NCBI GenBank assembly: GCA_963834265.1 | Contig: CAWIAU010000001.1 | Span: forward strand, 263,572-327,571 | DNA length: 64,000 nucleotides | Origin: an uncultured bacterium | Lineage (GTDB): Bacteria; Patescibacteriota; Saccharimonadia; Saccharimonadales; 2-12-FULL-41-12 | Reading direction: 5' to 3' | Part shown: positions 7,873 through 41,974 of the stretch, piece by piece | Position numbering within the stretch: position 1 is the first letter of the stretch | Layout: each line of letters starts with the position of its first letter | The notes under the pieces: generated by a model | The model's database searches: none | What the model was told of the DNA's origin: nothing | The model's input: the letters and a program-made list of their open reading frames with translations, nothing else | Translations under genes and position numbers: made by a program

Positions 7873-7883
7873 TATTTTTGATT

Positions 7884-8133: not shown

Positions 8134-8173
8134 ACAGTTGAGAGATATTGATTCTACATTGTTAAATAGCATC

Positions 8174-13162: not shown

Positions 13163-13173
13163 TTTATATAGAA

Positions 13174-15292: not shown

Positions 15293-15496
15293 ATGGCTAA
15301 AGATGATAAAAAAATTAGGATGGATCATAAGGGGCCGCCGCCGGCTTTTGGGTTCTATGTTTTAACTTATATTGGGGCGGCTGTTCACTTCGTTGGCAAT
15401 GTGGATGGGCTTTGGAATATCATAGTGGCACTAGCCAAAGCTGCTGTCTGGCCGGCATTTCTCATCAATAGAATCTTCGAACTCCTAAGAATCTAG
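15293..15496 (+). CDS. small membrane protein (67 aa, 2 predicted TM)
   Basis: RBS GGTGGAGGA lies 9 nt upstream of the ATG. Two hydrophobic segments are FGFYVLTYIGAAVHFVG and IIVALAKAAVWPAFLI. Confidence 0.5.
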   Translation: MAKDDKKIRMDHKGPPPAFGFYVLTYIGAAVHFVGNVDGLWNIIVALAKAAVWPAFLINRIFELLRI

Positions 15497-15949
15497 GTTT
15501 AATTCTTCTTCACTAGGTTTTTGGAACATTTTTGACCATTTCTCTAAGTCTTCTCTCTTGATTTGAAGAGTACCGGATCGGGATTCTGCACGGTTGGATA
15601 TTCTTTCCCAAAGTTCGTCCAAGCTTGCTTCTACGAATACTACTTTTGTAGCGACTCCTAGCTTTCCGGCTTCTTGTCTGTAGTGATCTCGCTCTGCTTT
15701 AGACCAAAACCCGAAGTCCAGGATTGCACTCTTGCCAGTTCTCAGCGCCTCTTTTGCCTGATTCCACAGAAGTTCTTCGGTGGGATAGCGAAATTTATCG
15801 CTTTGCTCGCGGTCTAGATTATTGCCATGATGTGCAAGTATCCACTCATCCGGAGTGAATCGAATAGCAGACTGATTTCGTTCTAGTTCTTTTGCTTCGG
15901 TAGTTTTACCCGAACCGGGCAATCCAACCATCAAATATAATGTTGTCAT
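15485..15949 (-). CDS. P-loop ATPase/kinase (AAA_33-like)
   Basis: Walker A GLPGSGKTT sits at the N-terminus. At 154 aa it is typical of small standalone nucleotide or zeta-like kinases. Confidence 0.8.
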   Translation of the reverse strand: MTTLYLMVGLPGSGKTTEAKELERNQSAIRFTPDEWILAHHGNNLDREQSDKFRYPTEELLWNQAKEALRTGKSAILDFGFWSKAERDHYRQEAGKLGVATKVVFVEASLDELWERISNRAESRSGTLQIKREDLEKWSKMFQKPSEEELNLDS

Positions 15950-18761: not shown

Positions 18762-18826
18762 GTTGGCAGTTATTTACTAATATAAATAGTAAAAACTAAA
18801 ACAAAAACCAAAAACAAAAACAAATA

Positions 18827-21800
18827 ATGCTTTCTCAGCGACCACGATTCTATAACCTGTTGGTTAGGGGTAAATCCCTGGCATTAGTTTTCCTGCTCCT
18901 GTTTCTGACAGGAGTTTTTTCTTATACGCGCACGCATACACCTACGCCCGTATACGCGGCTACCTCTGCTAATATCAATTTTCAGGCCCGGCTCCAGTCA
19001 GCCAGCGGAGCTATCGTTCCGGACGGCAACTATCACATGGAGTTTAAACTTTATACATCTGCCAGCGGTGGCTCAGCTGTTTGGACTGAGACCCGAAGTA
19101 CCGGTAACCTAGTCAGAACAGTAAACGGTTATCTGACAGTAAATCTTGGCAGCGTAAACGCCTTTCCTTCCGGAATGAACTGGGATCAGGAACACTGGCT
19201 GACCATGAATGTTGGCGGAAGTGGCGGCTCTCCGGTCTATGATGGCGAAATGACACCCCGGCTCAAACTTACAGCCACACCGTACGCCTTTAGTGCCGGC
19301 CAGCTTCGCAAAACCCTTGGTGCAAACACCAGTGTCCTGGACTTCCTGAACCCGACTGCTAACAGGACGCTTAATCTACCGGATCAGGACGGTACTCTTT
19401 GTGTTCAGGGATCACCTGATTGTGTTGATGTGGCTACCACAGGGACTACTGCCACGACATCAAGCAATTCCGGATTGGAGATCGGTATTGATGGATTACG
19501 GCTATTGGGAGGTTGTAGCGATAACCAGTCACTCAAATGGGATGCAACCGCAGAAGAGTGGAAGTGTACCTCAGGTAGCGGATCGTCAATCGGCGTCCGT
19601 GAAAGCGACGGATCGCCCAGCATGTCAGCCGATGTTATAGAGTTTGGCCCGTCAGGCGCATCTGACAGCGAATTTATTGTTACGAACGAAGGCAGTGGTG
19701 TCAGCAGGATACGATTAGGAAACGACGTACTATTGCTCACTAACTATGCCGCTACACTCGACGCTACCTACGTAAACGAATCCCAGTCGCCGGCCGCCGG
19801 CGATGTCTCCGGTTCATTCACAGCCGGTTTCAGTGTTAACGATGTCCAGAACAATGCCGTTGATCTGGGAGCCGAGACAGTCGGGGACTACATGGCCAAC
19901 CTCGGCACCGTAGTCGGATTAACTATTACAGGCACTAACAGTGGCGAAGGCAGTACGCCGGGCCTTAGTGTTACTTACGGATTCGGTGCTAACACCGCCG
20001 TACAGGGCAGCACCCAGCTTACCTGTGCTTCCGGCAGTGGTGATCTGTCCGGTGGCGGCACTGTCATAACTCTGGGCAGCGGCGGTACCTGCGGTGCCAT
20101 AACCATATCCGAAGCCCCCGTCTTTGATACCAGCGTTACCACCCCGCTTATTACTTACGGCGGCGCCCTGACCATCCAGACCACCGCTACCGGTGGCGCT
20201 GATGATCTGATCTTTAAAACCGCCGGCACGGAAGTTATGCGCCTGCTGGAAAACGGCAATATTTATCTGGAGAAAGGCACTAATGATGTCACCATAGCCG
20301 TAAATGCTCCCGGTGCCGCCGCCACCTACACCTTTGACGGAGCCAGCGGAACTATCCTGACCACTGCCAACTACGTTACTAACCTCGACGCTACCTACGT
20401 AAACGAATCCCAGTCGCCGGCCGCCGGCGATGTCTCCGGTTCATTCACAGCCGGTTTCAGTGTTAACGATGTCCAGAACAATGCCGTTGATCTGGGAGCC
20501 GAGACAGTCGGGGACTACATGGCCAACCTCGGCACCGTAGTCGGATTAACTATTACAGGCACTAACAGTGGCGAAGGCAGTACGCCGGGCCTTAGTGTTA
20601 CTTACGGATTCGGTGCTAACACCGCCGTACAGGGCAGCACCCAGCTTACCTGTGCTTCCGGCAGTGGTGATCTGTCCGGTGGCGGCACTGTCATAACTCT
20701 GGGCAGCGGCGGTACCTGCGGTGCCATAACCATATCCGAAGCCCCCGTCTTTGATACCAGCGTTACCACCCCGCTTATTACTTACGGCGGCGCCCTGACC
20801 ATCCAGACCACCGCTACCGGTGGCGCTGATGATCTGATCTTTAAAACCGCCGGCACGGAAGTTATGCGCCTGCTGGAAAACGGCAATATTTATCTGGAGA
20901 AAGGCACTAATGATGTCACCATAGCCGTAAATGCTCCCGGTGCCGCCGCCACCTACACCTTTGACGGAGCCAGCGGAACTATCCTGACCACTGCCAACTA
21001 CGTTACTAACCTCGACGCTACCTACGTAAACGAATCCCAGTCGCCGGCCGCCGGCGATGTCTCCGGTTCATTCACAGCCGGTTTCAGTGTTAACGATGTC
21101 CAGAACAATGCCGTTGATCTGGGAGCCGAGACAGTCGGGGACTACATGGCCAACCTCGGCACCGTAGTCGGATTAACTATTACAGGCACTAACAGTGGCG
21201 AAGGCAGTACGCCGGGCCTTAGTGTTACTTACGGATTCGGTGCTAACACCGCCGTACAGGGCAGCACCCAGCTTACCTGTGCTTCCGGCAGTGGTGATCT
21301 GTCCGGTGGCGGCACTGTCATAACTCTGGGCAGCGGCGGTACCTGCGGTGCCATAACCATATCCGAAGCCCCCGTCTTTGATACCAGCGTTACCACCCCG
21401 CTTATTACTTACGGCGGCGCCCTGACCATCCAGACCACCGCTACCGGTGGCGCTGATGATCTGATCTTTAAAACCGCCGGCACGGAAGTTATGCGCCTGC
21501 TGGAAAACGGCAATATTTATCTGGAGAAAGGCACTAATGATGTCACCATAGCCGTAAATGCTCCCGGTGCCGCCGCCACCTACACCTTTGACGGAGCCAG
21601 CGGAACTATCCTGACCACTGCCAACTACGTTACTAACCTCGACGCTACCTACGTAAACGAATCCCAGTCGCCGGCCGCCGGCGATGTCTCCGGTTCATTC
21701 ACAGCCGGTTTCAGTGTTAACGATGTCCAGAACAATGCCGTTGATCTGGGAGCCGAGACAGTCGGGGACTACATGGCCAACCTCGGCACCGTAGTCGGAT

Positions 21801-24800
21801 TAACTATTACAGGCACTAACAGTGGCGAAGGCAGTACGCCGGGCCTTAGTGTTACTTACGGATTCGGTGCTAACACCGCCGTACAGGGCAGCACCCAGCT
21901 TACCTGTGCTTCCGGCAGTGGTGATCTGTCCGGTGGCGGCACTGTCATAACTCTGGGCAGCGGCGGTACCTGCGGTGCCATAACCATATCCGAAGCCCCC
22001 GTCTTTGATACCAGCGTTACCACCCCGCTTATTACTTACGGCGGCGCCCTGACCATCCAGACCACCGCTACCGGTGGCGCTGATGATCTGATCTTTAAAA
22101 CCGCCGGCACGGAAGTTATGCGCCTGCTGGAAAACGGCAATATTTATCTGGAGAAAGGCACTAATGATGTCACCATAGCCGTAAATGCTCCCGGTGCCGC
22201 CGCCACCTACACCTTTGACGGAGCCAGCGGAACTATCCTGACCACTGCCAACTACGTTACTAACCTCGACGCTACCTACGTAAACGAATCCCAGTCGCCG
22301 GCCGCCGGCGATGTCTCCGGTTCATTCACAGCCGGTTTCAGTGTTAACGATGTCCAGAACAATGCCGTTGATCTGGGAGCCGAGACAGTCGGGGACTACA
22401 TGGCCAACCTCGGCACCGTAGTCGGATTAACTATTACAGGCACTAACAGTGGCGAAGGCAGTACGCCGGGCCTTAGTGTTACTTACGGATTCGGTGCTAA
22501 CACCGCCGTACAGGGCAGCACCCAGCTTACCTGTGCTTCCGGCAGTGGTGATCTGTCCGGTGGCGGCACTGTCATAACTCTGGGCAGCGGCGGTACCTGC
22601 GGTGCCATAACCATATCCGAAGCCCCCGTCTTTGATACCAGCGTTACCACCCCGCTTATTACTTACGGCGGCGCCCTGACCATCCAGACCACCGCTACCG
22701 GTGGCGCTGATGATCTGATCTTTAAAACCGCCGGCACGGAAGTTATGCGCCTGCTGGAAAACGGCAATATTTATCTGGAGAAAGGCACTAATGATGTCAC
22801 CATAGCCGTAAATGCTCCCGGTGCCGCCGCCACCTACACCTTTGACGGAGCCAGCGGAACTATCCTGACCACTGCCAACTACGTTACTAACCTCGACGCT
22901 ACCTACGTAAACGAATCCCAGTCGCCGGCCGCCGGCGATGTCTCCGGTTCATTCACAGCCGGTTTCAGTGTTAACGATGTCCAGAACAATGCCGTTGATC
23001 TGGGAGCCGAGACAGTCGGGGACTACATGGCCAACCTCGGCACCGTAGTCGGATTAACTATTACAGGCACTAACAGTGGCGAAGGCAGTACGCCGGGCCT
23101 TAGTGTTACTTACGGATTCGGTGCTAACACCGCCGTACAGGGCAGCACCCAGCTTACCTGTGCTTCCGGCAGTGGTGATCTGTCCGGTGGCGGCACTGTC
23201 ATAACTCTGGGCAGCGGCGGTACCTGCGGTGCCATAACCATATCCGAAGCCCCCGTCTTTGATACCAGCGTTACCACCCCGCTTATTACTTACGGCGGCG
23301 CCCTGACCATCCAGACCACCGCTACCGGTGGCGCTGATGATCTGATCTTTAAAACCGCCGGCACGGAAGTTATGCGCCTGCTGGAAAACGGCAATATTTA
23401 TCTGGAGAAAGGCACTAATGATGTCACCATAGCCGTAAATGCTCCCGGTGCCGCCGCCACCTACACCTTTGACGGAGCCAGCGGAACTATCCTGACCACT
23501 GCCAACTACGTTACTAACCTCGACGCTACCTACGTAAACGAATCCCAGTCGCCGGCCGCCGGCGATGTCTCCGGTTCATTCACAGCCGGTTTCAGTGTTA
23601 ACGATGTCCAGAACAATGCCGTTGATCTGGGAGCCGAGACAGTCGGGGACTACATGGCCAACCTCGGCACCGTAGTCGGATTAACTATTACAGGCACTAA
23701 CAGTGGCGAAGGCAGTACGCCGGGCCTTAGTGTTACTTACGGATTCGGTGCTAACACCGCCGTACAGGGCAGCACCCAGCTTACCTGTGCTTCCGGCAGT
23801 GGTGATCTGTCCGGTGGCGGCACTGTCATAACTCTGGGCAGCGGCGGTACCTGCGGTGCCATAACCATATCCGAAGCCCCCGTCTTTGATACCAGCGTTA
23901 CCACCCCGCTTATTACTTACGGCGGCGCCCTGACCATCCAGACCACCGCTACCGGTGGCGCTGATGATCTGATCTTTAAAACCGCCGGCACGGAAGTTAT
24001 GCGCCTGCTGGAAAACGGCAATATTTATCTGGAGAAAGGCACTAATGATGTCACCATAGCCGTAAATGCTCCCGGTGCCGCCGCCACCTACACCTTTGAC
24101 GGAGCCAGCGGAACTATCCTGACCACTGCCAACTACGTTACTAACCTCGACGCTACCTACGTAAACGAATCCCAGTCGCCGGCCGCCGGCGATGTCTCCG
24201 GTTCATTCACAGCCGGTTTCAGTGTTAACGATGTCCAGAACAATGCCGTTGATCTGGGAGCCGAGACAGTCGGGGACTACATGGCCAACCTCGGCACCGT
24301 AGTCGGATTAACTATTACAGGCACTAACAGTGGCGAAGGCAGTACGCCGGGCCTTAGTGTTACTTACGGATTCGGTGCTAACACCGCCGTACAGGGCAGC
24401 ACCCAGCTTACCTGTGCTTCCGGCAGTGGTGATCTGTCCGGTGGCGGCACTGTCATAACTCTGGGCAGCGGCGGTACCTGCGGTGCCATAACCATATCCG
24501 AAGCCCCCGTCTTTGATACCAGCGTTACCACCCCGCTTATTACTTACGGCGGCGCCCTGACCATCCAGACCACCGCTACCGGTGGCGCTGATGATCTGAT
24601 CTTTAAAACCGCCGGCACGGAAGTTATGCGCCTGCTGGAAAACGGCAATATTTATCTGGAGAAAGGCACTAATGATGTCACCATAGCCGTAAATGCTCCC
24701 GGTGCCGCCGCCACCTACACCTTTGACGGAGCCAGCGGAACTATCCTGACCACTGCCAACTACGTTACTAACCTCGACGCTACCTACGTAAACGAATCCC

Positions 24801-27388
24801 AGTCGCCGGCCGCCGGCGATGTCTCCGGTTCATTCACAGCCGGTTTCAGTGTTAACGATGTCCAGAACAATGCCGTTGATCTGGGAGCCGAGACAGTCGG
24901 GGACTACATGGCCAACCTCGGCACCGTAGTCGGATTAACTATTACAGGCACTAACAGTGGCGAAGGCAGTACGCCGGGCCTTAGTGTTACTTACGGATTC
25001 GGTGCTAACACCGCCGTACAGGGCAGCACCCAGCTTACCTGTGCTTCCGGCAGTGGTGATCTGTCCGGTGGCGGCACTGTCATAACTCTGGGCAGCGGCG
25101 GTACCTGCGGTGCCATAACCATATCCGAAGCCCCCGTCTTTGATACCAGCGTTACCACCCCGCTTATTACTTACGGCGGCGCCCTGACCATCCAGACCAC
25201 CGCTACCGGTGGCGCTGATGATCTGATCTTTAAAACCGCCGGCACGGAAAAAATTCGAATATTAGAAAATGGCACACTGGTATTTGGTACTGGTGCCAAC
25301 AGTGCTAATTTGTACTTGTCTGCAAATGACACTCTGAGGACGGATGATCTGTTTGTAGCAGGAGCAGGATTAAGCGTGTTAGCAAATGGTGCTACAATTG
25401 CTGGTGATTTCAGTATCGACGGACTGGTATTTGATCCAACAGGTAATCTTGTGCTAAACGACACCGTGGATATTGGCTCAGCTACAACAGGACTTCGGGT
25501 AAATACGGACGGGTCAATATTCGACATTGATGGTGTTCTTGTTTTAAACGATCAACTAAACCTAGGCTCATCCTCAACAGGTCTATTAATTACTACATCA
25601 GGAATAATTACGGATATTGATGGGGCAAGTGTTGTATTTGGTGAAAACATCACTGTAAATACAGGAGGTATTACCGTAACAGGCAATAGCACTATTAATG
25701 GGACGCTCGGGTCTTTGACCGGCTTGACTGTAATTAGTGGAGGAGCATCGATAAGTGGAGGCTTGAATAATAACAGTGGCGGACTGACTAACGCCGGATC
25801 TATTACAGGAGTAGGCGGTAATATAACAGGATCAGGAAGTATGACTATATCCTCCGGAGCTGCTGCGGCACTGACGCTAGATTCCGGAACAACCGGTGGC
25901 CTGAACATCGGCACCGGCAATAATGCCAAAACCATCAATATCGGCACCGGTACGGCCGGCAACGCTATCAACATCGGTACCAATAACACCACGGCCGACA
26001 CGATCCAGATTGGCTCGGCTCTGGATACGCTGACGCTCACGGGTTCCTCTTTAACTACATTTGTAATCAACGCAATAACCGTAGACGCTACCGAGTTTAA
26101 CCGGCTCGACGGCAAAAACGCAGCACTGGTTGATGAAAATGACTTCATCAGCGGGGACGGAACTGGCGGTACAAGCAATGGGTCCGGATTGGAAGCAGGT
26201 ACCGGTGGAATTGGGCTATTGCAAGGTTGCACCAACAATCAAATTTTGAAATGGGTAGATGCAAGTTCTGTCTGGAACTGCGCGGCTGACGCCACAGGTA
26301 TTTCTGATTCCCGGGTTAAGAAAAATGTCCAAACTGTCGAAGGAGCTATGCTGGATAAAATTAAGGATATTCGGGTAGTAGAATTTGACTATGACTGCAC
26401 CAGCCCGGCGTTTGCTTACCAGCACTGCGACATAGACCACCAAACAGGTGTTATCGCGCAGGAACTTGCTCAAATCTTTCCGGAACTTGTCACCCAGGAT
26501 GAGCACGGCTATTATAGCGTTAGATACGACGCATTAGCCATCTATAACCTCAAAGCCGTGGGAGAACTAGCACGTTCGTTAGATTCTCAAGGTAACGGTA
26601 AGTTTAATAATGTTTCATCAAATTCACTTGTTGTAAAAGGAGATATTATAGCTGGCACAATCCGTGCTGACAGGATAGAAGGCCTGGACTATGTTGGCCG
26701 GTTTGAATCTTTGGAAGAAAGAGTAGACCATCTTGAGAAAAATAATAACTTTCAGAATAATAACTTTGCGGGCACAGTAGAAGTTGGTTCATTGATTGCC
26801 AATAAAGAAGTTGACCTAAAAAATGATGTGCGAATTAACGGTAGCACAGACCTGCAGAGATTAAATGTAAATCTTGCTTTAATCGCCAAAGACTCCTTTG
26901 AAGTGCTAGGAAGATCTACCTTCAAAGAGGCGTCCGGATTCGAGAAAGATGTACATTTTGATGGCCAAATTAACGTGCTTGGTTACACGAATGTCCAGGG
27001 CCTAAGCGTAAACCTTGACTTGATTGTTAAAGGCTCATTGCAGCTCGACGGGCCGGCCACCTTCAAGGAGGCAGTCAAATTCGAGAAAGACGCTGAATTT
27101 GCGGGTAATGTGTCTGTAAAAGGACAGGCCACGTTCAACGGTGATACGGCGGGGTATGCCATCATTAAAAAAGGCGAAAAAAGCCTTGCGATTAAGTTTA
27201 AAAACCCTAAGCCACAAATACCGATCGTTACCATGTCGCTTGGTAATGGCAAGTTTGCCTCCTACAGTTACCAGAATGTAACAAAAGAGGGCTTCGAGAT
27301 TATTCTGGCTAATGCCGCTGACGAAGATCTTAGCTTCTCATGGATTGCTATTCTAACCCAAAGTGAGGAAATTTCTGCTATGCCGTAG
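18827..27388 (+). CDS. giant repetitive fibre/adhesin-like surface protein 1 (2,853 aa) with internal S74-type autoprocessing domain
   Basis: Uninterrupted 8,562-nt ORF. It has an N-terminal signal/anchor (LALVFLLLFLTGVF), 8.76 identical 209-aa repeats, G/T/N-rich repeats, ISDSRVKKNV..GVIAQELAQIFPELV..YSVRYDALAIYNLKA (S74/ICA pattern), and then 361 aa counted from the Ser to the C-terminus. Confidence 0.9.
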   Translation: MLSQRPRFYNLLVRGKSLALVFLLLFLTGVFSYTRTHTPTPVYAATSANINFQARLQSASGAIVPDGNYHMEFKLYTSASGGSAVWTETRSTGNLVRTVNGYLTVNLGSVNAFPSGMNWDQEHWLTMNVGGSGGSPVYDGEMTPRLKLTATPYAFSAGQLRKTLGANTSVLDFLNPTANRTLNLPDQDGTLCVQGSPDCVDVATTGTTATTSSNSGLEIGIDGLRLLGGCSDNQSLKWDATAEEWKCTSGSGSSIGVRESDGSPSMSADVIEFGPSGASDSEFIVTNEGSGVSRIRLGNDVLLLTNYAATLDATYVNESQSPAAGDVSGSFTAGFSVNDVQNNAVDLGAETVGDYMANLGTVVGLTITGTNSGEGSTPGLSVTYGFGANTAVQGSTQLTCASGSGDLSGGGTVITLGSGGTCGAITISEAPVFDTSVTTPLITYGGALTIQTTATGGADDLIFKTAGTEVMRLLENGNIYLEKGTNDVTIAVNAPGAAATYTFDGASGTILTTANYVTNLDATYVNESQSPAAGDVSGSFTAGFSVNDVQNNAVDLGAETVGDYMANLGTVVGLTITGTNSGEGSTPGLSVTYGFGANTAVQGSTQLTCASGSGDLSGGGTVITLGSGGTCGAITISEAPVFDTSVTTPLITYGGALTIQTTATGGADDLIFKTAGTEVMRLLENGNIYLEKGTNDVTIAVNAPGAAATYTFDGASGTILTTANYVTNLDATYVNESQSPAAGDVSGSFTAGFSVNDVQNNAVDLGAETVGDYMANLGTVVGLTITGTNSGEGSTPGLSVTYGFGANTAVQGSTQLTCASGSGDLSGGGTVITLGSGGTCGAITISEAPVFDTSVTTPLITYGGALTIQTTATGGADDLIFKTAGTEVMRLLENGNIYLEKGTNDVTIAVNAPGAAATYTFDGASGTILTTANYVTNLDATYVNESQSPAAGDVSGSFTAGFSVNDVQNNAVDLGAETVGDYMANLGTVVGLTITGTNSGEGSTPGLSVTYGFGANTAVQGSTQLTCASGSGDLSGGGTVITLGSGGTCGAITISEAPVFDTSVTTPLITYGGALTIQTTATGGADDLIFKTAGTEVMRLLENGNIYLEKGTNDVTIAVNAPGAAATYTFDGASGTILTTANYVTNLDATYVNESQSPAAGDVSGSFTAGFSVNDVQNNAVDLGAETVGDYMANLGTVVGLTITGTNSGEGSTPGLSVTYGFGANTAVQGSTQLTCASGSGDLSGGGTVITLGSGGTCGAITISEAPVFDTSVTTPLITYGGALTIQTTATGGADDLIFKTAGTEVMRLLENGNIYLEKGTNDVTIAVNAPGAAATYTFDGASGTILTTANYVTNLDATYVNESQSPAAGDVSGSFTAGFSVNDVQNNAVDLGAETVGDYMANLGTVVGLTITGTNSGEGSTPGLSVTYGFGANTAVQGSTQLTCASGSGDLSGGGTVITLGSGGTCGAITISEAPVFDTSVTTPLITYGGALTIQTTATGGADDLIFKTAGTEVMRLLENGNIYLEKGTNDVTIAVNAPGAAATYTFDGASGTILTTANYVTNLDATYVNESQSPAAGDVSGSFTAGFSVNDVQNNAVDLGAETVGDYMANLGTVVGLTITGTNSGEGSTPGLSVTYGFGANTAVQGSTQLTCASGSGDLSGGGTVITLGSGGTCGAITISEAPVFDTSVTTPLITYGGALTIQTTATGGADDLIFKTAGTEVMRLLENGNIYLEKGTNDVTIAVNAPGAAATYTFDGASGTILTTANYVTNLDATYVNESQSPAAGDVSGSFTAGFSVNDVQNNAVDLGAETVGDYMANLGTVVGLTITGTNSGEGSTPGLSVTYGFGANTAVQGSTQLTCASGSGDLSGGGTVITLGSGGTCGAITISEAPVFDTSVTTPLITYGGALTIQTTATGGADDLIFKTAGTEVMRLLENGNIYLEKGTNDVTIAVNAPGAAATYTFDGASGTILTTANYVTNLDATYVNESQSPAAGDVSGSFTAGFSVNDVQNNAVDLGAETVGDYMANLGTVVGLTITGTNSGEGSTPGLSVTYGFGANTAVQGSTQLTCASGSGDLSGGGTVITLGSGGTCGAITISEAPVFDTSVTTPLITYGGALTIQTTATGGADDLIFKTAGTEKIRILENGTLVFGTGANSANLYLSANDTLRTDDLFVAGAGLSVLANGATIAGDFSIDGLVFDPTGNLVLNDTVDIGSATTGLRVNTDGSIFDIDGVLVLNDQLNLGSSSTGLLITTSGIITDIDGASVVFGENITVNTGGITVTGNSTINGTLGSLTGLTVISGGASISGGLNNNSGGLTNAGSITGVGGNITGSGSMTISSGAAAALTLDSGTTGGLNIGTGNNAKTINIGTGTAGNAINIGTNNTTADTIQIGSALDTLTLTGSSLTTFVINAITVDATEFNRLDGKNAALVDENDFISGDGTGGTSNGSGLEAGTGGIGLLQGCTNNQILKWVDASSVWNCAADATGISDSRVKKNVQTVEGAMLDKIKDIRVVEFDYDCTSPAFAYQHCDIDHQTGVIAQELAQIFPELVTQDEHGYYSVRYDALAIYNLKAVGELARSLDSQGNGKFNNVSSNSLVVKGDIIAGTIRADRIEGLDYVGRFESLEERVDHLEKNNNFQNNNFAGTVEVGSLIANKEVDLKNDVRINGSTDLQRLNVNLALIAKDSFEVLGRSTFKEASGFEKDVHFDGQINVLGYTNVQGLSVNLDLIVKGSLQLDGPATFKEAVKFEKDAEFAGNVSVKGQATFNGDTAGYAIIKKGEKSLAIKFKNPKPQIPIVTMSLGNGKFASYSYQNVTKEGFEIILANAADEDLSFSWIAILTQSEEISAMP
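19757..25249 (+). repeat. in-frame tandem repeat, 8.76 x 627 bp, no differences seen between copies
   Basis: The landmark ACGCTACCTA recurs at 19761, 20388, 21015 and onward. GGCACGGAA at 20225 and 25241 are 8 x 627 bp apart. All translated units are identical. Confidence 0.95.
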
Positions 27389-27451
27389 AGAAGACTTGAT
27401 TAATTGTTGTTATTTTACTATGCTAAACATAAGAAAAAAGAAGGGAACACT

Positions 27452-27922
27452 GTGGCCAAAACCGATAAAGACAATGATGTTTCAATAAAAAAAACCAGAA
27501 GACTCAAGATGGAGATCAAAAAAGCCCACCTGATAATAATGGCTTTGTTGCTGATTATGGCCGGTGGCGCTTATTTTGGCTATCAGAAATACGATGAAGT
27601 AAACCAGGAGAAGCAGCGTTTATCTGATCCTCAGGAAGCGGCCCGTCAGGAAACCCAGCGAACTAAAGAGCAAGTTGCAAAGCTTATAGATGTACCCCAA
27701 GGCGAGGATCCGACAATCGCAAGTGTGGTCGATGCCTCAAAGTTATCCAATCAATCGTTTTTTAAGAACGCAAAAAATGGTGACAAGGTACTTATGTATG
27801 CCCAAGCCAAAAAAGCTATCCTGTATCGTCCTGACTCCAATAAGATTATAGAAGTCGCACCGATCAACATCGGTAACAACGAACAGCCAGCCGCACCAGC
27901 AGGTACTGAGACGCCACAGTAG
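27452..27922 (+). CDS. single-pass membrane protein, partner of giant 1 (paralog of 41342-41974)
   Basis: GTG at 27452 follows GAAGGGA. Alternative starts are TTG 27404 and ATG 27509. TM segment AHLIIMALLLIMAGGAYFGY. The C-terminal domain ..PTIASVVDASKLSNQSFFKNAKNGDKVLMYAQAKKAILYRPDSNKIIEVAPINIG is about 55% identical to its paralog. Confidence 0.65.
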   Translation: MAKTDKDNDVSIKKTRRLKMEIKKAHLIIMALLLIMAGGAYFGYQKYDEVNQEKQRLSDPQEAARQETQRTKEQVAKLIDVPQGEDPTIASVVDASKLSNQSFFKNAKNGDKVLMYAQAKKAILYRPDSNKIIEVAPINIGNNEQPAAPAGTETPQ

Positions 27923-29680: not shown

Positions 29681-32600
29681 ATGTATCAAGAAACTCAAAC
29701 CAAAAGCCGTTCCAGAGTGTACGTTACCGTAGGTGATGCGGCGGAGCTATTAGGTGTTTCTATCGATACTGTCCGACGTTGGGAAAAGAGCGGCAAACTG
29801 CATGCTAAACGATTAGATGGCAAGAATCGATACTTCCCCAAAGATGAATTAGAGCAATTCAGAGCTCATCAGCCCCTGTCTACAACAGAAGTGGCTAAGC
29901 GACTTAAGACCTCTGCTTCCAGCGTACGTCGTCTCGAAGCTAGTGGCCAGATAACGGCTGACCGTGCTGAGAACGGAAAGCGTCTTTACTCTTTGGCAAG
30001 TATAGTTGACTATTTGGAAAGTAAATCTGCTCCATTGCAACCAGCAATATCAGATAAACAGGAATTAGCGTCAGGTGTAGCCCTGAATCAGGTAACACCG
30101 ATGCCGGCACTGACTATCGCACCGCCACCGCGTCAACATACCCCGCGTCATGGATTAAAGCATCATTTACAGCAGCCTAAGAAGTTATGGGCTACTCATT
30201 CCGGCAGATTAAATTACCATATTTTTCAAAAAGTAATCATCTATAGTGCTACGGCATGTGTCTCCGTAGTGATGATATTGACGCTATTCTTTCTGATGTT
30301 TCCGGGAACTGCCCGCACGACATTTTATAATCAATCCCATAACAGTGGTAAACAGTTTGTTTCGAAACAAGCTGACGGTCTCTTAGTACGGGCCTTCAAG
30401 CCCTTTACAAATGCAGCCCTGGGCGTTGTCGAGGTAGTTAACCCGGAAGTCCGCAATACTATTCAGCCTAGGGCCATAGATGACGTGAATGAAGTATTCG
30501 CGCCTGACTCGCAGGGAAATATTATCACCAGGTACACCTTTAGCCCGCCGAACTCATCTTATCTGAAGATACCAGATCAGGGGTTAGTTACAAATCTGAA
30601 TAGTGAATTTGTCGGAGGCTATAAACCGGGCGAAAAGAAAGGAGATCTGGCTATCTTACCTCTGGGAGGTGATCAGCTTAAAGATAAGTCACTTAATGGT
30701 GACCAGCTGGCCGATGGAGCAATTAAGCTTAGCCATCTTTCTCCTACTTTGATAGCTTCTCTGAAGAGCGGAGGCACAGGAGGAAGTACTTTTGTAAGCG
30801 GTGCTGGCAGCGCCGGACCAGCAGGCCCATCAGGAGTTAACGGGGCGGCTGGAGCTGCAGGTGCCAACGGTGCTCCCGGTTCTCAAGGAGTAGCAGGTCC
30901 AGCCGGAGCAGCCGGACCTGCTGGATCACAAGGAGCTAACGGGGCACCGGGTGCTCCAGGAGCACAAGGCCCGACTGGTCCGCAAGGACCTCCAGGCGCT
31001 GGAGCTACGATAGCCTTGCAAGAGTCTGACGGTAGTCCGCTGGTTAGCGGCGTATCAAACATACAGTTTGGACCCACCAGCAACTCTTCTGACGAGTTTA
31101 TCCTGACAGACTTAACAGGAGGTCAGGTACGAATACAACTGGGCACTACGGTGCTTCTAACAACGAATTACACTACTACTCTGGATCCTATATATCTCAA
31201 TATTGGAGAATCTCCCGGGATCGGAGATATTACGGGCAGCTTCAGCGGGGGTTTGCAGGTAGCACCTGATGCGGTGGCGCTAGGTACCGATACCACTGGT
31301 AATTATTTAACTACTCTATCTGGCAGCACGGGTCTAATTGTCAGTGGATCGGGTTCAGAAAATGCGGCAGCTAGCATTGCTTTAGACGTAGTTACTACTG
31401 GTACAACAGGATTGTCCAGTGCCAACTCCGGGCTTGAGTTGGGTCCCGACGGTCTGCGTTTGCTTGGTGGATGCGCAACAAACCATGTATTGAAATGGAA
31501 CGGAACTACTTGGGCATGTGCTACCGATAACAGTAGTAGCGCTGCTGATGTTAAGGAAAATGGTGTAATTATTACTCCCACAGCAACAGCTATAGATTTT
31601 TTCGGTTCAGATTTTAATGTAACCAACAATGTTACGCAGGCAAATATAGCATTAGATTATATTAACTCGGGAATTACTCGTCGCACGGGGGCAGAGATAA
31701 TAAGCGGCAACTGGGCATTTAATGATAATAGCTTTACGCTGCAAGATAATGCTGACTCTAGTAAAAAACTTGCAATAGAATTATCGGGAATTACAACAGG
31801 AACAACGCGTACTTTAACAGCCCCAAACGCCAGCGGGACCATCATTAGCACGGGGAATTTAACTGACATTGTAAATGTGGGTACGCTCACAAGCGGTGTT
31901 TGGCAGGGTTCTGTTGTAGCCGTGCAGTATGGGGGAACAGGGGCCAACACCTTTACGTCTAACGGATTGCTATATGGAAATGGCAACAGTGCTGTACAGG
32001 CCACATCCGCGGGCACGGCCGGACAATTATTAGTTGCAAATGCTAGCAGTGTACCAACGTTTGCTACTCTATCGGGTGATGCGACCTTATCTGGCGCCGG
32101 CCTGCTAACATTAGCTAACTCGGGCGTTACAGCAAATACTTATGGAAGCTCAACTCAGGTACCGGTTTTTGCGGTTGACTCAAAAGGTAGAATCACTAAT
32201 GTAACTAATACAACAATAACAGGGGTCGCACCGGGTGGAACCGCCGGAGGTGATTTGAGTGGAACTTATCCCAACCCAAGCGTTTCAAGAATCAATGGAG
32301 TCGCTCTTGGTAGTACAACGGCAACGGGAGGAAATTTGCTGCTTGCCAATGGTACAAGCTGGGTCAGTCAAGCTCTTTCGGGAGATTTAAGTGTAAATGG
32401 GGCAGGCGTTGCCTCGATAGCAAACAACGCCATCAGTACCTCAAAAATTTTGGACGCCAATGTAACAAACATTAAATTAGCAAACTCCTCCTTAACAGTT
32501 ATGGCTGGAACAGGATTATCTGGCGGAGGAGCTATAAGTTTAGGTGGCACGACTACGCTTAACTTAGCTAATACGGCTGTATCGGCAGGGAGTTACGGCA

Positions 32601-35600
32601 GTAGCTCCGCGGTCCCTACTTTTACTGTAGATTCCCAGGGACGGCTGACAATGGCTGGTAATACAACCTTAGCTAATGCGGGACTGCAGAATTCAAGTTT
32701 GACCTTAACAGCGGGCAATGGACTAGCCGGGGGAGGAAGCGTTGCTTTAGGCGCATCTACAAGCCTTAACGTTCAGTATGGTGCTATCGCGAATACATCT
32801 GTCCAAGGCAATACTCAGATTACTTGTACGCCTGGTGCTGGTAATTTGTCCGGAGGGGGTACGGTTATAACACTGGGCTCAGGTGGAGCATGTGGTGCTA
32901 TTAATACGAATGCAGCGGTAAATTTTGCTACAAGTGTTACAACTCCACTACTTACGTCCATTGGTCCGATTACAATACAATCTGATCCCAGTGTTGGTAG
33001 TGACGACATAATATTCAATAGTGCCGGTAGCGAGATTTTTCGTTTACTTGAAACAGGGGAATTTAAGTTTGAACGCGGCTCAAACGATGCGTTCTTTTCT
33101 ATTGCAACTCCTAGTGGCGCGCCTGCTACTTATACTTTTTCCGGCGTATCCGGAACTGTCCTTACTAGTTCAAATTTCAGCAGTAGCTTAGACAGTTCTT
33201 ATGTGAACATAGGCGAATCCCCGTCAGCTGGCGACATTAACGGATCATTTGGGGGAGGTTTAAGCATTGGATCAGACGCAGTTGCTTTAGGGACAGACAC
33301 TACAGGCAACTATCTGGCTACACTTAGCGGAGGCACAGGATTGACAGTTACTGGATCTGGCAGCGAAAGTGCTGCGGTGACTTTAGCGCTCGATGTAATA
33401 ACTACAGGAACAACAGCTACTACAAACTCTAACTCTGGCTTAGAACTCGGTAGTGACGGGCTAAGATTGCTGGGGGGTTGTGCTTCTAATGAGATACTCA
33501 AATGGAATGGATCAACTTGGGCTTGCGCTGCAGATAATGGTACCGGAGCTGCTCCCACACTTCAAGAGAATTATGACAATGATCCCAATGGAGCGAATGT
33601 GATAATTGGATTGTCCAATGTTGACGGGGGTATATTTATTCGTGATAACGCGTCGCCAATTGGCGGTAACTTATTTGCCGTACAAAGCGACGGAGGTAGC
33701 ACTACTTATTTAGGTATCACTGCAAGTGGATCCAGCGTATCGGGAACTTTCTCGGCGACCGGTGCTATTAATGGCGCCACCATTTCTGGTGGCTCTCTAA
33801 ACTCTACTTCGGTTAATGGTCTTAGTGTTTCGGGGGGCATTATAACTGTGGGTACCTGGAATGGTACTGCTCTAACAGACTCTTATGTTTCTGATACTCT
33901 AACCTCAAGTATTTTCATAGGTTCAGGAAGTACATCAAATGCTGTAGATTTAGCTAGTGCCGAAGTAGCCGGCAGCCTGGCCGACGGAAATGTCTCAGAT
34001 ACCTTAACCATAGGTGCTTCCGGCAGCGTGGCTGACGGAGCTTTAAGTGTCAACGTGACTAAACTGGGGACTGCCATAGACCTGGCTACAGCTGAGGTAG
34101 CCGGTAATCTGAGAGCTAATAATCTGCAGAGTGCCGGAGCCGACCTTGGCGCGACTAATGTTAACATTGACCTGAGCAATACCAACGGAAGCTTCGTCAC
34201 CAACTTAACCGTAGACGGTACTATTACTGCCGCTACCTTTGCCGGCAACCTGACAGGTAATGTCACCGGCAACGCTTCAACCGCTACCGCTCTGGCTAAC
34301 AATCCGACAGATTGCGGAGCCAACCAGTTCGCCATTACCATTGCCGCCAGCGGTAACCTGACCTGCGCCGCGCTGACTGATGCCGATATACCGAATAACA
34401 TTACAATTGATCTGGCTGCCAACGCCACCACAGCTGTTAATCTGGTTGGTTCCGGCAGTACCACCAATGCCGTAGATCTGGCTACAGCTGAGGTATCCGG
34501 CAACTTACGGGCTAACAACCTGCAGAACGCCGCCGCCGACCTGGGAGGAGCTGACGTCAACATTAACCTCAGCAATACCAACGGAAGCTTCGTGACTAAT
34601 CTGACGGTTGACGGCACCATCACCGCCGCCACCTTTGCCGGCGCTCTTACGGGCAATGTCACCGGTAATGTCACCGGCAACGCTTCAACCGCTACCGCTC
34701 TGGCTAACAATCCGACAGATTGCGGAGCCAACCAGTTCGCCATTACCATTGCCGCCAGCGGTAACCTGACCTGCGTGTCCTTAACAGATCTGGATATACC
34801 GAACAACATTACAATTGATCTGGCTGCCGCCGCTACCGCGCTGGCTAACAACCCCACTGACTGTAGCGCTGATACTTACGCTACTACTATCGCTGCCAGC
34901 GGTAACCTGACTTGTGCTTCCATTACCGACGCTTCATTATCTGCTAACGTCACTAAACTGGGCAGTAGTATCCAAAACAGTGAAGTAGACGACGACCTGA
35001 CTATTAGTGCTTCCGGCAGCGTGGCTGACGGAGCTTTAAGTGTCAACGTGACTAAACTGGGGACTGCCATAGACCTGGCTACAGCTGAGGTAGCCGGTAA
35101 TCTGAGAGCTAATAATCTGCAGAGTGCCGGAGCCGACCTTGGCGCGACTAATGTTAACATTGACCTGAGCAATACCAACGGAAGCTTCGTCACCAACTTA
35201 ACCGTAGACGGTACTATTACTGCCGCTACCTTTGCCGGCAACCTGACAGGTAATGTCACCGGCAACGCTTCAACCGCTACCGCTCTGGCTAACAATCCGA
35301 CAGATTGCGGAGCCAACCAGTTCGCCATTACCATTGCCGCCAGCGGTAACCTGACCTGCGCCGCGCTGACTGATGCCGATATACCGAATAACATTACAAT
35401 TGATCTGGCTGCCAACGCCACCACAGCTGTTAATCTGGTTGGTTCCGGCAGTACCACCAATGCCGTAGATCTGGCTACAGCTGAGGTATCCGGCAACTTA
35501 CGGGCTAACAACCTGCAGAACGCCGCCGCCGACCTGGGAGGAGCTGACGTCAACATTAACCTCAGCAATACCAACGGAAGCTTCGTGACTAATCTGACGG

Positions 35601-38600
35601 TTGACGGCACCATCACCGCCGCCACCTTTGCCGGCGCTCTTACGGGCAATGTCACCGGTAATGTCACCGGCAACGCTTCAACCGCTACCGCTCTGGCTAA
35701 CAATCCGACAGATTGCGGAGCCAACCAGTTCGCCATTACCATTGCCGCCAGCGGTAACCTGACCTGCGTGTCCTTAACAGATCTGGATATACCGAACAAC
35801 ATTACAATTGATCTGGCTGCCGCCGCTACCGCGCTGGCTAACAACCCCACTGACTGTAGCGCTGATACTTACGCTACTACTATCGCTGCCAGCGGTAACC
35901 TGACTTGTGCTTCCATTACCGACGCTTCATTATCTGCTAACGTCACTAAACTGGGCAGTAGTATCCAAAACAGTGAAGTAGACGACGACCTGACTATTAG
36001 TGCTTCCGGCAGCGTGGCTGACGGAGCTTTAAGTGTCAACGTGACTAAACTGGGGACTGCCATAGACCTGGCTACAGCTGAGGTAGCCGGTAATCTGAGA
36101 GCTAATAATCTGCAGAGTGCCGGAGCCGACCTTGGCGCGACTAATGTTAACATTGACCTGAGCAATACCAACGGAAGCTTCGTCACCAACTTAACCGTAG
36201 ACGGTACTATTACTGCCGCTACCTTTGCCGGCAACCTGACAGGTAATGTCACCGGCAACGCTTCAACCGCTACCGCTCTGGCTAACAATCCGACAGATTG
36301 CGGAGCCAACCAGTTCGCCATTACCATTGCCGCCAGCGGTAACCTGACCTGCGCCGCGCTGACTGATGCCGATATACCGAATAACATTACAATTGATCTG
36401 GCTGCCAACGCCACCACAGCTGTTAATCTGGTTGGTTCCGGCAGTACCACCAATGCCGTAGATCTGGCTACAGCTGAGGTATCCGGCAACTTACGGGCTA
36501 ACAACCTGCAGAACGCCGCCGCCGACCTGGGAGGAGCTGACGTCAACATTAACCTCAGCAATACCAACGGAAGCTTCGTGACTAATCTGACGGTTGACGG
36601 CACCATCACCGCCGCCACCTTTGCCGGCGCTCTTACGGGCAATGTCACCGGTAATGTCACCGGCAACGCTTCAACCGCTACCGCTCTGGCTAACAATCCG
36701 ACAGATTGCGGAGCCAACCAGTTCGCCATTACCATTGCCGCCAGCGGTAACCTGACCTGCGTGTCCTTAACAGATCTGGATATACCGAACAACATTACAA
36801 TTGATCTGGCTGCCGCCGCTACCGCGCTGGCTAACAACCCCACTGACTGTAGCGCTGATACTTACGCTACTACTATCGCTGCCAGCGGTAACCTGACTTG
36901 TGCTTCCATTACCGACGCTTCATTATCTGCTAACGTCACTAAACTGGGCAGTAGTATCCAAAACAGTGAAGTAGACGACGACCTGACTATTAGTGCTTCC
37001 GGCAGCGTGGCTGACGGAGCTTTAAGTGTCAACGTGACTAAACTGGGGACTGCCATAGACCTGGCTACAGCTGAGGTAGCCGGTAATCTGAGAGCTAATA
37101 ATCTGCAGAGTGCCGGAGCCGACCTTGGCGCGACTAATGTTAACATTGACCTGAGCAATACCAACGGAAGCTTCGTCACCAACTTAACCGTAGACGGTAC
37201 TATTACTGCCGCTACCTTTGCCGGCAACCTGACAGGTAATGTCACCGGCAACGCTTCAACCGCTACCGCTCTGGCTAACAATCCGACAGATTGCGGAGCC
37301 AACCAGTTCGCCATTACCATTGCCGCCAGCGGTAACCTGACCTGCGCCGCGCTGACTGATGCCGATATACCGAATAACATTACAATTGATCTGGCTGCCA
37401 ACGCCACCACAGCTGTTAATCTGGTTGGTTCCGGCAGTACCACCAATGCCGTAGATCTGGCTACAGCTGAGGTATCCGGCAACTTACGGGCTAACAACCT
37501 GCAGAACGCCGCCGCCGACCTGGGAGGAGCTGACGTCAACATTAACCTCAGCAATACCAACGGAAGCTTCGTGACTAATCTGACGGTTGACGGCACCATC
37601 ACCGCCGCCACCTTTGCCGGCGCTCTTACGGGCAATGTCACCGGTAATGTCACCGGCAACGCTTCAACCGCTACCGCTCTGGCTAACAATCCGACAGATT
37701 GCGGAGCCAACCAGTTCGCCATTACCATTGCCGCCAGCGGTAACCTGACCTGCGTGTCCTTAACAGATCTGGATATACCGAACAACATTACAATTGATCT
37801 GGCTGCCGCCGCTACCGCGCTGGCTAACAACCCCACTGACTGTAGCGCTGATACTTACGCTACTACTATCGCTGCCAGCGGTAACCTGACTTGTGCTTCC
37901 ATTACCGACGCTTCATTATCTGCTAACGTCACTAAACTGGGCAGTAGTATCCAAAACAGTGAAGTAGACGACGACCTGACTATTAGTGCTTCCGGCAGCG
38001 TGGCTGACGGAGCTTTAAGTGTCAACGTGACTAAACTGGGGACTGCCATAGACCTGGCTACAGCTGAGGTAGCCGGTAATCTGAGAGCTAATAATCTGCA
38101 GAGTGCCGGAGCCGACCTTGGCGCGACTAATGTTAACATTGACCTGAGCAATACCAACGGAAGCTTCGTCACCAACTTAACCGTAGACGGTACTATTACT
38201 GCCGCTACCTTTGCCGGCAACCTGACAGGTAATGTCACCGGCAACGCTTCAACCGCTACCGCTCTGGCTAACAATCCGACAGATTGCGGAGCCAACCAGT
38301 TCGCCATTACCATTGCCGCCAGCGGTAACCTGACCTGCGCCGCGCTGACTGATGCCGATATACCGAATAACATTACAATTGATCTGGCTGCCAACGCCAC
38401 CACAGCTGTTAATCTGGTTGGTTCCGGCAGTACCACCAATGCCGTAGATCTGGCTACAGCTGAGGTATCCGGCAACTTACGGGCTAACAACCTGCAGAAC
38501 GCCGCCGCCGACCTGGGAGGAGCTGACGTCAACATTAACCTCAGCAATACCAACGGAAGCTTCGTGACTAATCTGACGGTTGACGGCACCATCACCGCCG

Positions 38601-41341: not shown

Positions 41342-41974
41342 ATGCCGAGTATTCACGTGGAAGAGCCAATACCAGAGAAAGAACCAAATGAGCCGAAATT
41401 GGAAACTCCGGATAAAGCAATAAAATCCGAACCAGAGGAAATTACACCGGAAACTAAATCTGAATCTGTGGCAGAACCAGCCACTGCGTCACCGGTTGCG
41501 CAAGCACCAGTCACTGGGCGTTCGCATTTGGACTACAAGAAGTTTATTTTTCCCGGAAGCTTTGTGATACTGCTGGCTCTTATTATTCTGGTTATTAGTC
41601 TTGTCAATGACAGGAGTCAGTTGAAGCAGGAGAATTCGCGGCTTTCAAGCCAAACGCAGAAATCTACCCAGGATCAGAGCAATAAAGAAGCAGAAGATCT
41701 CAAAAAAGAGATCAGCCAATATTTGGAATTGCCGGCAGATGAAGTACCTACTGTAGCTACCGTGGTGGATGCTAACAAAGTAAAAGGGCAGAGCTTCTTT
41801 GTGAACGCACAGAATGGCGATAAAGTATTGTTGTTTGCTACAAGTGGCAAAGCCATTCTGTACAGACCAGGTACTAAAAAAATTGTCGAAGTTTCTCCGA
41901 TTAATTTAAATCAAAACCAACAATCAGGCACTCCACCTCCGTCCACTACTCTCACCCCCAAAACGAGCCGATGA
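41342..41974 (+). CDS. single-pass membrane protein, partner of giant 2 (paralog of 27452-27922)
   Basis: RBS AAGGGAG. Acidic N-terminus. TM segment FIFPGSFVILLALIILVISLV. C-terminal domain ..PTVATVVDANKVKGQSFFVNAQNGDKVLLFATSGKAILYRPGTKKIVEVSPINL. Confidence 0.75.
   Translation: MPSIHVEEPIPEKEPNEPKLETPDKAIKSEPEEITPETKSESVAEPATASPVAQAPVTGRSHLDYKKFIFPGSFVILLALIILVISLVNDRSQLKQENSRLSSQTQKSTQDQSNKEAEDLKKEISQYLELPADEVPTVATVVDANKVKGQSFFVNAQNGDKVLLFATSGKAILYRPGTKKIVEVSPINLNQNQQSGTPPPSTTLTPKTSR

Follow-up and report, generated by a model that had tools for sequence, protein, structure and literature searches.

Background

The Peptidase_S74 (S74) chaperone domain is documented in homotrimeric phage fibres, in myelin regulatory factor (MyRF) and in the mosaic adhesive trimer (MAT) fibres of Bdellovibrio (PMC10769870, PMC4690869), and its SDxxxK motif was shown to be self-cleaving in Bd3182 (PMC10769870). 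The C-terminal piece released in this way measures 133 amino acids (aa) in T5 pb1 (PMC4690869) and 141 aa in Bd3182 (PMC10769870). The MAT family of Bdellovibrio bacteriovorus comprises 21 proteins of ~1,000 aa, 13 of which end in S74 with SDxxxK, the other tips being of the beta-sandwich, TNF-like or C-type lectin kind; a table of MAT proteins from other taxa covers predators, FCB-group bacteria and Omnitrophica, and Saccharibacteria are not in it (PMC10769870). Here, we analyse gene 1 (g1; 18827..27388, + strand), which lies in a 64,000-nucleotide (nt) stretch of the chromosome of a Saccharibacterium (Saccharimonadia, Patescibacteria/candidate phyla radiation (CPR); contig CAWIAU010000001.1), hereafter called the window. 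We propose, with a probability of roughly 60 %, that the product of g1 is secreted and forms a homotrimeric fibre on the cell surface, with the general design of phage receptor-binding fibres and MAT fibres.

Cultivated Saccharibacteria live attached to host Actinobacteria. In published work, type IV pili are the main structures connected with this attachment, besides a small number of lectin-like envelope proteins (PMC10633639, PMC9894109, PMC11623550) and dockerin proteins (PMC10633639). Our literature search gave no paper that connects S74 or MAT-type fibres with Saccharibacteria or Patescibacteria.

Results

The g1 reading frame begins with ATG and encodes a protein of 2,853 aa plus stop, as an earlier inspection of the letters of the window (the original prediction) had claimed. 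The product is very large, acidic and Gly/Thr/Ala-rich, and ends in ...TQSEEISAMP. It contains a Peptidase_S74/intramolecular-chaperone domain (26303..26602, +; aa 2493-2592) with an S2493/K2498 dyad and a predicted self-cleavage site at I2492/S2493. The Pfam family PF13884 matches aa 2493-2556 with an E-value of 2.4e-12 and 47.4 bits against a cut-off of 22 (49.7 bits for the C-terminal fragment), and the dyad motif S2493-D-S-R-V-K2498 conforms to SDxxxK. Both the Ser and the Lys are conserved in 37/37 aligned S74 domains of relatives, among them that of giant 2 (g2), the second giant gene of the locus. AlphaFold2, by which monomer models only were computed for the N-terminal and C-terminal parts of g1, modelled the S74 domain well, with a block-mean predicted local distance difference test score (pLDDT) of ~76-94, and Foldseek matched it to the MyRF ICA (7dc3; prob 1.0, TM 0.59, 26-30% identity), the endosialidase chaperone 3gw6 and the GA-1 chaperone 3gud. 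Searched against the Protein Data Bank (PDB), a profile of the C-terminal region retrieved the tail fibre 8jov (6e-12), 6f45 (3e-9), 7dc3 (6e-9) and 3gud (2e-6), and searches with single sequences retrieved MyRF alone (E 0.05). The matches in PHROGs and in GenBank phages are tail fibres and are confined to the S74 stretch, PHROGs giving nothing elsewhere and GenBank phages matching only aa 2460-2625 at 30-38% identity; similarity to phages is limited to ~110 residues. By analogy with the S74 domains of phage fibres, MyRF and Bd3182 (PMC4690869, PMC10769870), g1 would trimerise from its C-terminal region and cut itself at I2492/S2493.

The S74 domain is internal rather than placed at the extreme C-terminus, as 361 aa lie beyond the serine in g1 and 225-465 aa in its relatives. 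The predicted post-serine fragment of g1 has 361 residues (~40 kDa), and the mature fibre left after both predicted cuts, at the signal peptide and at S74, has a computed size of 2,448 residues, or ~242 kDa per chain, with an isoelectric point of 4.05. Four relatives (P0011, P0004, P0002 and P0007) carry two S74 domains per chain with the Ser/Lys dyad intact in each, and would thus have two self-cleavage sites. Furthermore, a different post-S74 module takes the place of the lectin-type tail described below in P0011, P0015, P0016, P0018, P0021, P0022, P0025, P0028, P0032 and P0040; ~400 aa then lie beyond the serine, and the module shows the motif GDPxGxNGAxYYNSxxxKFRCYxxxxWxDC.

Beyond S74, g1 continues with a linker (26603..27139, +; aa 2593-2771). 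In the AlphaFold2 model, the chaperone is prolonged by a helix, after which the chain forms a short, coiled-coil-like helix (~2629-2638) and then beta-strand repeats that are duplicated. The linker leads into a C-terminal H-type-lectin-like beta-sandwich (27140..27367, +; aa 2772-2847) modelled at a pLDDT of 90-96, for which Foldseek returned the Helix pomatia agglutinin (HPA; 2ce6/2ccv), SLL-2 and discoidin II (prob 1.0, TM ~0.5, identity 16-24%) as well as the R2 pyocin fibre tip. The corresponding Pfam family, PF09458 (H_lectin), matches 15/20 aligned homologous tails with a best value of 2.4e-7, and the g2 tail with 1.2e-3. H-type lectins are trimeric, which fits a three-fold fibre. The original prediction had described a coiled-coil-like segment after S74, followed by beta repeats and a terminal module of ~70 aa shared with g2; this order stands, and only the size needs correction, since the shared module (2727-2842 in g1, 3731-3852 in g2) covers ~116-122 aa at 43% identity. 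Neither the lectin fold of the tail nor the small membrane-protein genes described next figured in the original prediction.

A small single-pass membrane protein is encoded directly after each giant. The gene following g1 (27404..27922, +), listed with 172 aa although its start is uncertain (an ATG is found at 27509), is a candidate partner gene, and the one following g2 (41342..41974, +; 210 aa) is its paralogue, the C-terminal halves of the two proteins being 46% identical over 102 aa (E 3e-30). Among 162 loci examined, a gene of this type lies 180-510 nt 3' of 9/9 lectin-type tails, the nine representing five independent genes; in three loci it is present without a detectable lectin tail. 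Loci with such partner-type genes include L007/L082, L033, L059, L080, L081 and L083, with three tandem copies in L033. The partner protein has no match in Pfam, NCBIfam or PDB, and a terminator scan found no terminator-like site between g1 and the partner gene.

At its other end, g1 begins with a putative signal peptide (18827..18958, +; aa 1-44), in which a basic n-region precedes a hydrophobic core (~17-31) and signal peptidase I is predicted to cut at VYA↓AT. Kyte-Doolittle windows mark residues 8-36 as hydrophobic and AlphaFold2 places a helix at 8-34, so that hydropathy, model and a family-wide motif all agree with the segment and site recognised earlier. The cleavage-like site (V42-Y43-A44↓A45-T46) immediately precedes the N-domain, where 210 relatives show the consensus [A/V/T]-x-A↓A-T-S-S-T before the first strand: position -1 is Ala in 201/210, position +1 is Ala in 184/210, and position -3 is A, V or T in 203/210, with a median of 7 residues between hydrophobic core and site. 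Signal peptidase I sites classically show such a -3/-1 residue pattern. Export by Sec and a cut after Ala44 are what this conserved motif, taken by itself, would predict.

The conserved N-domain that follows (18959..19321, +; aa 45-165) is the module by which the family is defined, and presumably forms the end of the fibre closest to the cell. It was modelled as a beta-sandwich with a pLDDT >90 for residues 50-150, in line with the beta-rich domain originally quoted from the sequence. Foldseek yielded generic Ig-like matches only (best E 0.011, TM <=0.45), and neither its profile (alignment A4) nor a single-sequence search with the N-part found a match in the PDB.

This N-domain defines a large family. 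All named relatives of g1 come from metagenome-assembled genomes (MAGs) of Candidatus Saccharibacteria/Saccharimonadales, and when one genome of each GTDB species was scanned with the N-domain, 184 relatives emerged, the best 80 of which are almost all from Saccharibacteria assemblies; the closest N-domains in genome and protein collections are 71-80% identical. A few N-domain loci (L047, L076 and L006) sit in MAGs labelled Burkholderiales, Nevskiaceae (on a 557-kb contig) or Limnocylindria and are probably mis-binned Saccharibacteria contigs. HMMER with aa 36-200 reached 13,268 cluster representatives at E<=1e-3, 2,603 at 1e-10 and 550 at 1e-30, the domain always lying at ~residues 40-210 of proteins of up to 4,884 aa. 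A metagenome scan with g1 aa 1-310 gave no relatives and one with alignment A5 gave 122, while a homologue search with the divergent N-domain of P0071, aimed beyond Saccharibacteria, gave 12 short matches. No relative of the N-domain was found in 2.9 million viral contigs (IMG/VR), and tblastn against plasmids found no match. Databases name the relatives "hypothetical" or "tail fiber domain-containing protein" (NCBI), and an NCBIfam search with g1 itself was without match.

What follows the N-domain is far less constant. When 120 homologues were mapped on g1, the first 200 residues were common to ~109/120, the S74 region to ~24 and the C-terminal module to ~16. In relatives, the N-domain is joined to S74, Kelch, carbohydrate-binding module (PF02018), beta-helix (PF13229), pectate-lyase-like and other parts, with modules shuffled from one relative to another. 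P0123 and P0124 resemble orthologues over the whole length: P0123 (2,447 aa) is 78% identical to g1 in its N-part and 54% in its C-part and has three diverged repeat units, and P0124 (2,636 aa, 72% identical) has 6.6 units of 639 nt. Both loci are syntenic with the window, from which we conclude that the two-giant locus is conserved. One syntenic contig carries, in order, Glyoxalase, DUF1801, the giant, a 164-aa gene and a second large gene, and the complete 1.19-Mb chromosome OY970327.1 carries a helix-turn-helix (HTH)/MerR-collagen-S74 giant of 4,334 aa, a 228-aa gene, P0124, a 180-aa gene, ROK, S1 and IF-2. The pairing of an N-domain giant with a giant that has an HTH and a transmembrane (TM) segment recurs in at least two other Saccharimonadia assemblies.

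Between the N-terminal modules and the S74 region, g1 is dominated by a tandem array (19751..25254, +; aa 310-2142), which we take as the presumed stalk. Its 627-nt (209-aa) unit is present in 8.77-8.78 copies that are 99.9% identical and have 57% G+C, with a Cys pair in every unit (C400/C422 in copy 1), so that the ~8.76 identical units with Cys pairs claimed initially were confirmed. Copies 2-8, i.e. seven copies over 4.4 kb, show no base difference from one another; copy 1 departs from them at two bases, and the partial copy at the end is diverged beyond base 480. The periodicity is far above chance, the copy number of this perfect 5.5-kb array being an assembly value. The unit itself was modelled at low confidence (AlphaFold2), and its homologue in g2 is a single unit at 1024-1228 with 53% identity. 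The units of P0124 are 99.6% identical among themselves and only ~78% identical to the unit of g1; the repeat arrays were expanded or homogenised independently in each lineage. G+C reaches 54-57% inside the arrays of both giants (20001-24000 and 34001-38000) as compared to 47% for the window, with negative GC skew there; this is consistent with Gly/Ala/Thr-rich coding and does not necessarily imply a foreign origin.

Shorter modules frame the array. Cys-bounded module 1 (19472..19567, +; aa 216-247, GLEIGIDGLRLLGGC..LKW..W.C), recognised by a regular-expression match, was modelled as four strands at a pLDDT of ~75 and is 48% identical to g2 568-650; it is followed by the ESDGSP module (19586..19753, +; aa 254-309), collinear with g2 443-500. 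On the C-terminal side, a G/T/N/L-rich fibre segment (25253..26227, +; aa 2143-2467) was modelled as a low-confidence beta-strand ladder with weak Foldseek matches to tailspike beta-helices. The original prediction had seen a G/T/N-rich region here, which is real, and had called its repeats YadA-head-like, a label that finds no Pfam support. Next comes Cys-bounded module 2 (26228..26281, +; aa 2468-2485), directly N-terminal to the cleavage serine, which would form the C-terminal tip of the processed fibre. The motif C-x5-LKW-x6-W-x-C thus occurs twice in g1, at 230-247 and at 2468-2485, the second copy lying ahead of Ser2493 exactly as noted before.

Giant 2 (29681..41272, +; 3,863 aa) comprises, in order, an HTH_17/MerR domain (aa 14-62), a TM segment (181-212), collagen G-x-y repeats (379-437), an array of 993-nt repeats, S74 and a lectin-like tail. 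Its HTH_17/MerR-type DNA-binding domain is cytoplasmic, ahead of an extracellular fibre. The array (34007-39175) holds 5.2 copies of the 993-nt unit at 99.9% identity, and the 324-aa antisense reading frames at 33883-38829 are by-products of this repeat. The architecture of HTH, membrane segment, collagen, fibre and S74 recurs in the 4,334-aa protein of OY970327.1 and in P0010. BLASTP of g1 against g2 revealed six homologous segments outside low-complexity sequence (31-55% identity, E 1e-6 to 2e-51), and the two proteins share, in the same order, the Cys-bounded module, the ESDGSP module, one repeat unit, the fibre segment, S74 and the C-terminal lectin-like module. One of these segments, g1 254-372 against g2 443-559, corresponds to the collinearity first suspected at 19600-19760. 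Together with the S74 domain present in both, the six segments support the view of the original prediction that g1 and g2 are two diverged members of one fibre family in a single locus; their similarity extends well beyond low-complexity regions, and the searches gave no assignment to S-layer, RTX or autotransporter proteins.

The surroundings of the giant locus are cellular. It is flanked by gpsA, rRNA, infB and rpsA, and the window further contains the gyrA C-terminus, a GDPD gene, Fic, a ROK kinase gene, fmt, def, priA, adk, map, ftsA, ftsZ and a class II ribonucleotide reductase gene (nrd). All Pfam-matched neighbours are cellular and mostly of housekeeping type, in addition to Fic, a Zeta-toxin/AAA_33-like ATPase and an HNH endonuclease; no phage gene was found in the 64-kb window and no phage structural gene among the Pfam-matched neighbours. 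A promoter scan 5' of g1 showed one weak promoter-like site (18763-18790) and was otherwise uninformative. Further 5' of the giant locus lie the Fic/DOC family gene (14010-15158) and the AAA_33/Zeta-toxin-like ATPase gene (15485-15949, minus strand). In the region 2285-13164, 16S (2285-3754) and 23S (9161-12892) are unlinked rRNA genes with 5.4 kb between them, and 5S is located with 23S. The gap between 16S and 23S contains the HNH endonuclease gene (4856-5368, minus), tRNA-Ile and tRNA-Ala (minus strand, opposite to the rRNA) and a tandem repeat (4673-5103; 1.9 copies of a 228-nt unit). The 23S match extends over 3,732 nt as compared to a model of 2,925 nt, implying ~800 nt of inserted sequence.

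Discussion

Our best reading is that the closest known counterpart of g1 are the MAT fibres of Bdellovibrio, followed by phage receptor-binding fibres. Like the S74 subgroup of MAT proteins (e.g. Bd3182), g1 is a cellular protein of a bacterium living on other bacteria, and the order of a signal peptide, directly followed by a conserved beta-rich N-domain of ~120-130 aa, then a long fibre and an S74 domain with SDxxxK, is the same in both, a likeness at the level of architecture. Both families are also mosaic, with interchangeable tips that include lectin folds, and in both the N-domain is without a clear structural homologue in the PDB (for g1 by Foldseek; for MAT, PMC10769870), in which MAT structures are confined to tip fragments. 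However, g1 is 2.5-3 times longer, its stalk consists of perfectly homogenised 209-aa repeats, its S74 domain is internal with 361 aa after the serine as compared to 141 aa in Bd3182, its lectin fold follows S74 instead of substituting for it, and a dedicated membrane-protein gene is located 3' in its locus. Furthermore, the MAT producer is a Gram-negative predator, whereas g1 is produced by Saccharibacteria, which usually lack an outer membrane.

With phage fibres such as the K1F endosialidase (3GW6), T5 pb1 and GA-1 gp12 (3GUD), g1 shares the S74 fold with its Ser/Lys dyad and a fibrous Gly/Thr/Asn-rich region N-terminal to it, and trimer-templating followed by self-cleavage is expected in both cases. 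Unlike these fibres, g1 has a Sec signal, a cellular N-domain and no virion context, and the piece it would release is 361 aa long instead of the 133 aa of T5 pb1. In this respect it is reminiscent of the MyRF ICA (7DC3), the best solved match, where S74 is likewise internal and a substantial C-terminal part comes after it. In MyRF, cleavage serves to detach the N-terminal portion, a transcription factor, from a C-terminal portion anchored in the membrane, whereas in g1 the S74 domain would lie outside the cytoplasm and has no membrane segment C-terminal to it. The fold of aa 2772-2847 matches that of H-type lectins (Helix pomatia agglutinin, SLL-2, the discoidin II C-domain), from which g1 differs by its low identity of 16-24% and by the position of the domain C-terminal to a self-cleaving site. 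Finally, near-identical tandem repeats are familiar from Gram-positive adhesins such as Rib/alpha C, SasG and Esp, and like these g1 has a homogenised in-frame repeat stalk whose copy number varies among strains or orthologues; it nevertheless has no LPXTG, its unit is unrelated, and its S74 domain implies a trimeric assembly in place of a monomeric rod. The departures from phage fibres, MyRF and MAT proteins are the internal S74 domain with a lectin-bearing fragment of 361 aa (225-465 aa in relatives), the partner gene and the giant homogenised stalk. The arrangement of S74, lectin module and membrane protein is not described for any of the three, and an internal S74 with a lectin-bearing fragment and a partner gene offers a variant, open to direct testing, of a mechanism of folding and cleavage that has been studied in depth.

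Other classes of surface protein were also considered. A YadA-type autotransporter was rejected, as g1 has no YadA, Hep_Hag or anchor matches in Pfam and its C-terminus is a lectin-like sandwich; a sortase-anchored adhesin was rejected because no [LIV]P.[TSA][GAN] motif occurs anywhere in g1; an S-layer (SLH) protein, because Pfam and NCBIfam found no SLH or other S-layer domains; and a polymorphic toxin, because no toxin domain is present at the C-terminus.

From domain content, signal peptide and analogy with these fibres, surface exposure, trimerisation and attachment can be proposed for g1, which by the same analogy is a plausible tool for attachment to host bacteria. In our model, Sec would export g1 and signal peptidase I would cut after Ala44, and the constant N-terminal beta-sandwich would hold the fibre at the envelope of the producer. 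Three chains would fold and come into register from the C-terminal region, with the S74 domain as trimerisation template, upon which the Ser2493/Lys2498 dyad would cut Ile2492/Ser2493 to yield the 2,448-residue mature fibre and the 361-residue C-terminal fragment. The nine 209-residue modules would form a long stalk whose length changes by gain or loss of units; copy numbers do differ among orthologues (3, 6.6 and 8.8). With its distal end the fibre would bind to a structure on the surface of another cell, the probable target being a glycan of the host bacterium. Binding would be through the Cys-bounded module that cleavage exposes or, should the fragment remain attached, through the H-type-lectin-like trimer, and the small membrane protein may cooperate with the lectin-type tail in docking or assembly. 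A constant N-domain combined with variable C-terminal parts is the pattern expected for constant anchors and variable tips, as has been argued for MAT (PMC10769870).

Several observations weigh against this model. The lectin-like domain sits C-terminal to the predicted S74 cut, and if the fragment is released as in phages, the domain leaves with it, which is awkward for a lectin serving as binding tip; moreover, the g1 tail itself has no PF09458 match at E<=0.01 in Pfam. The spacer between hydrophobic core and cleavage site is ~13 residues in g1 against the family median of 7, and the N-terminus may be either a cleaved signal peptide or a retained membrane anchor. Outside three domains, both AlphaFold2 monomer models are poor (mean pLDDT 61-63), and the beta-helix capping loop of MAT and MyRF (V-G-G/N-aromatic-x-x-P-x-x-x-L) is absent from g1 and g2 even with a relaxed pattern. 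Lastly, deletions of MAT genes in B. bacteriovorus did not clearly reduce predation (PMC12428579), so that an adhesion role is not firmly established even in the model organism.

The same deletion phenotype (PMC12428579) would suit a structural component of the envelope, a spacer or a matrix protein, such as an S-layer-like coat or a fibre for cell-cell cohesion or biofilm, that recognises no host at all. Large, acidic, Gly/Thr/Ala-rich proteins with homogenised repeats are common in matrices and coats, and the gene keeps a conserved position amid housekeeping genes; on the other hand, the S-layer domains are missing, S74 and a lectin-type tail are hallmarks of receptor-binding fibres, and tails and middles are as highly mosaic as would be expected for ligands under diversifying pressure. 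We therefore regard a purely structural role as unlikely, although it is the most probable of the alternatives. Alternatively, the S74-lectin fragment held by the small membrane protein might be the cell-proximal anchor and the N-domain the distal end, in which case the S74 cut would release a 242-kDa fibre or leave a membrane-bound lectin trimer behind. This reversed polarity would make sense of a post-serine fragment far bigger than a plain chaperone and of a partner gene that tracks the lectin-type tail and not the N-domain; in addition, with a signal peptide that looks cleavable nothing covalent holds the N-terminus, and g1 has no LPXTG or other wall-anchor motif. Yet the N-domain is the constant part of the family and the C-terminal parts are the variable ones, and g2, which has the same tail and partner, possesses an unambiguous N-terminal membrane anchor, which argues for a free C-terminal end across the family. 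Shedding or anchoring by the tail is accordingly quite unlikely in our view.

That g1 might instead be a virion part, encoded by a prophage, a tailocin or a phage-derived tail fibre gene, is suggested by S74 matches that are overwhelmingly phage tail fibres and by the NCBI name of one relative, "tail fiber domain-containing protein". We rejected the prophage tail fibre given the cellular context, the Sec signal and the lack of the N-domain in the viral contigs, and a phage origin of any kind seems very improbable with a phage similarity limited to ~110 residues at 30-38% identity, no phage genes in 64 kb flanked by gpsA, rRNA, infB and rpsA, and a chromosomal locus that is conserved in other Saccharimonadia. 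A different concern is that g1 is real but owes part of its size to the assembly, with a wrong 627-nt copy number, so that 2,853 aa and 8.77 units would not be biological: short reads cannot count seven base-identical copies over 4.4 kb. There is only a slim chance of this, as the orthologue on the complete 1.19-Mb Saccharimonadia chromosome has a 6.6-copy array at 99.6% identity, g2 has a separate array with 5.2 copies of its own 993-nt unit, and the g1 array is in frame and ends in a diverged partial unit. The secreted homotrimeric fibre with a constant N-terminal anchor remains our preferred reading of g1.

Conclusions

As a wider and more tentative interpretation, which we consider possible rather than probable, episymbiotic Saccharibacteria would possess a very large repertoire of mosaic fibres that resemble phage receptor-binding proteins and share an N-terminal module, with g1 and g2 as a conserved two-fibre host-recognition locus in which the self-cleaving S74 is extended to a lectin module. 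The 225-465-aa trimeric-lectin module and the dedicated membrane protein could then constitute an assembly platform or a second, separable binding unit, and gain or loss of stalk repeats could tune the reach of the fibre. N-domain proteins are among the largest in these ~1-Mb genomes, and supply many specific candidates for host recognition in a lineage of obligate episymbionts. If such fibres do mediate host recognition, they would determine host range much as phage receptor-binding proteins do, could help to predict or engineer host pairing, and would show that the phage-like fibre strategy known from bacterial predators is also used in the CPR.

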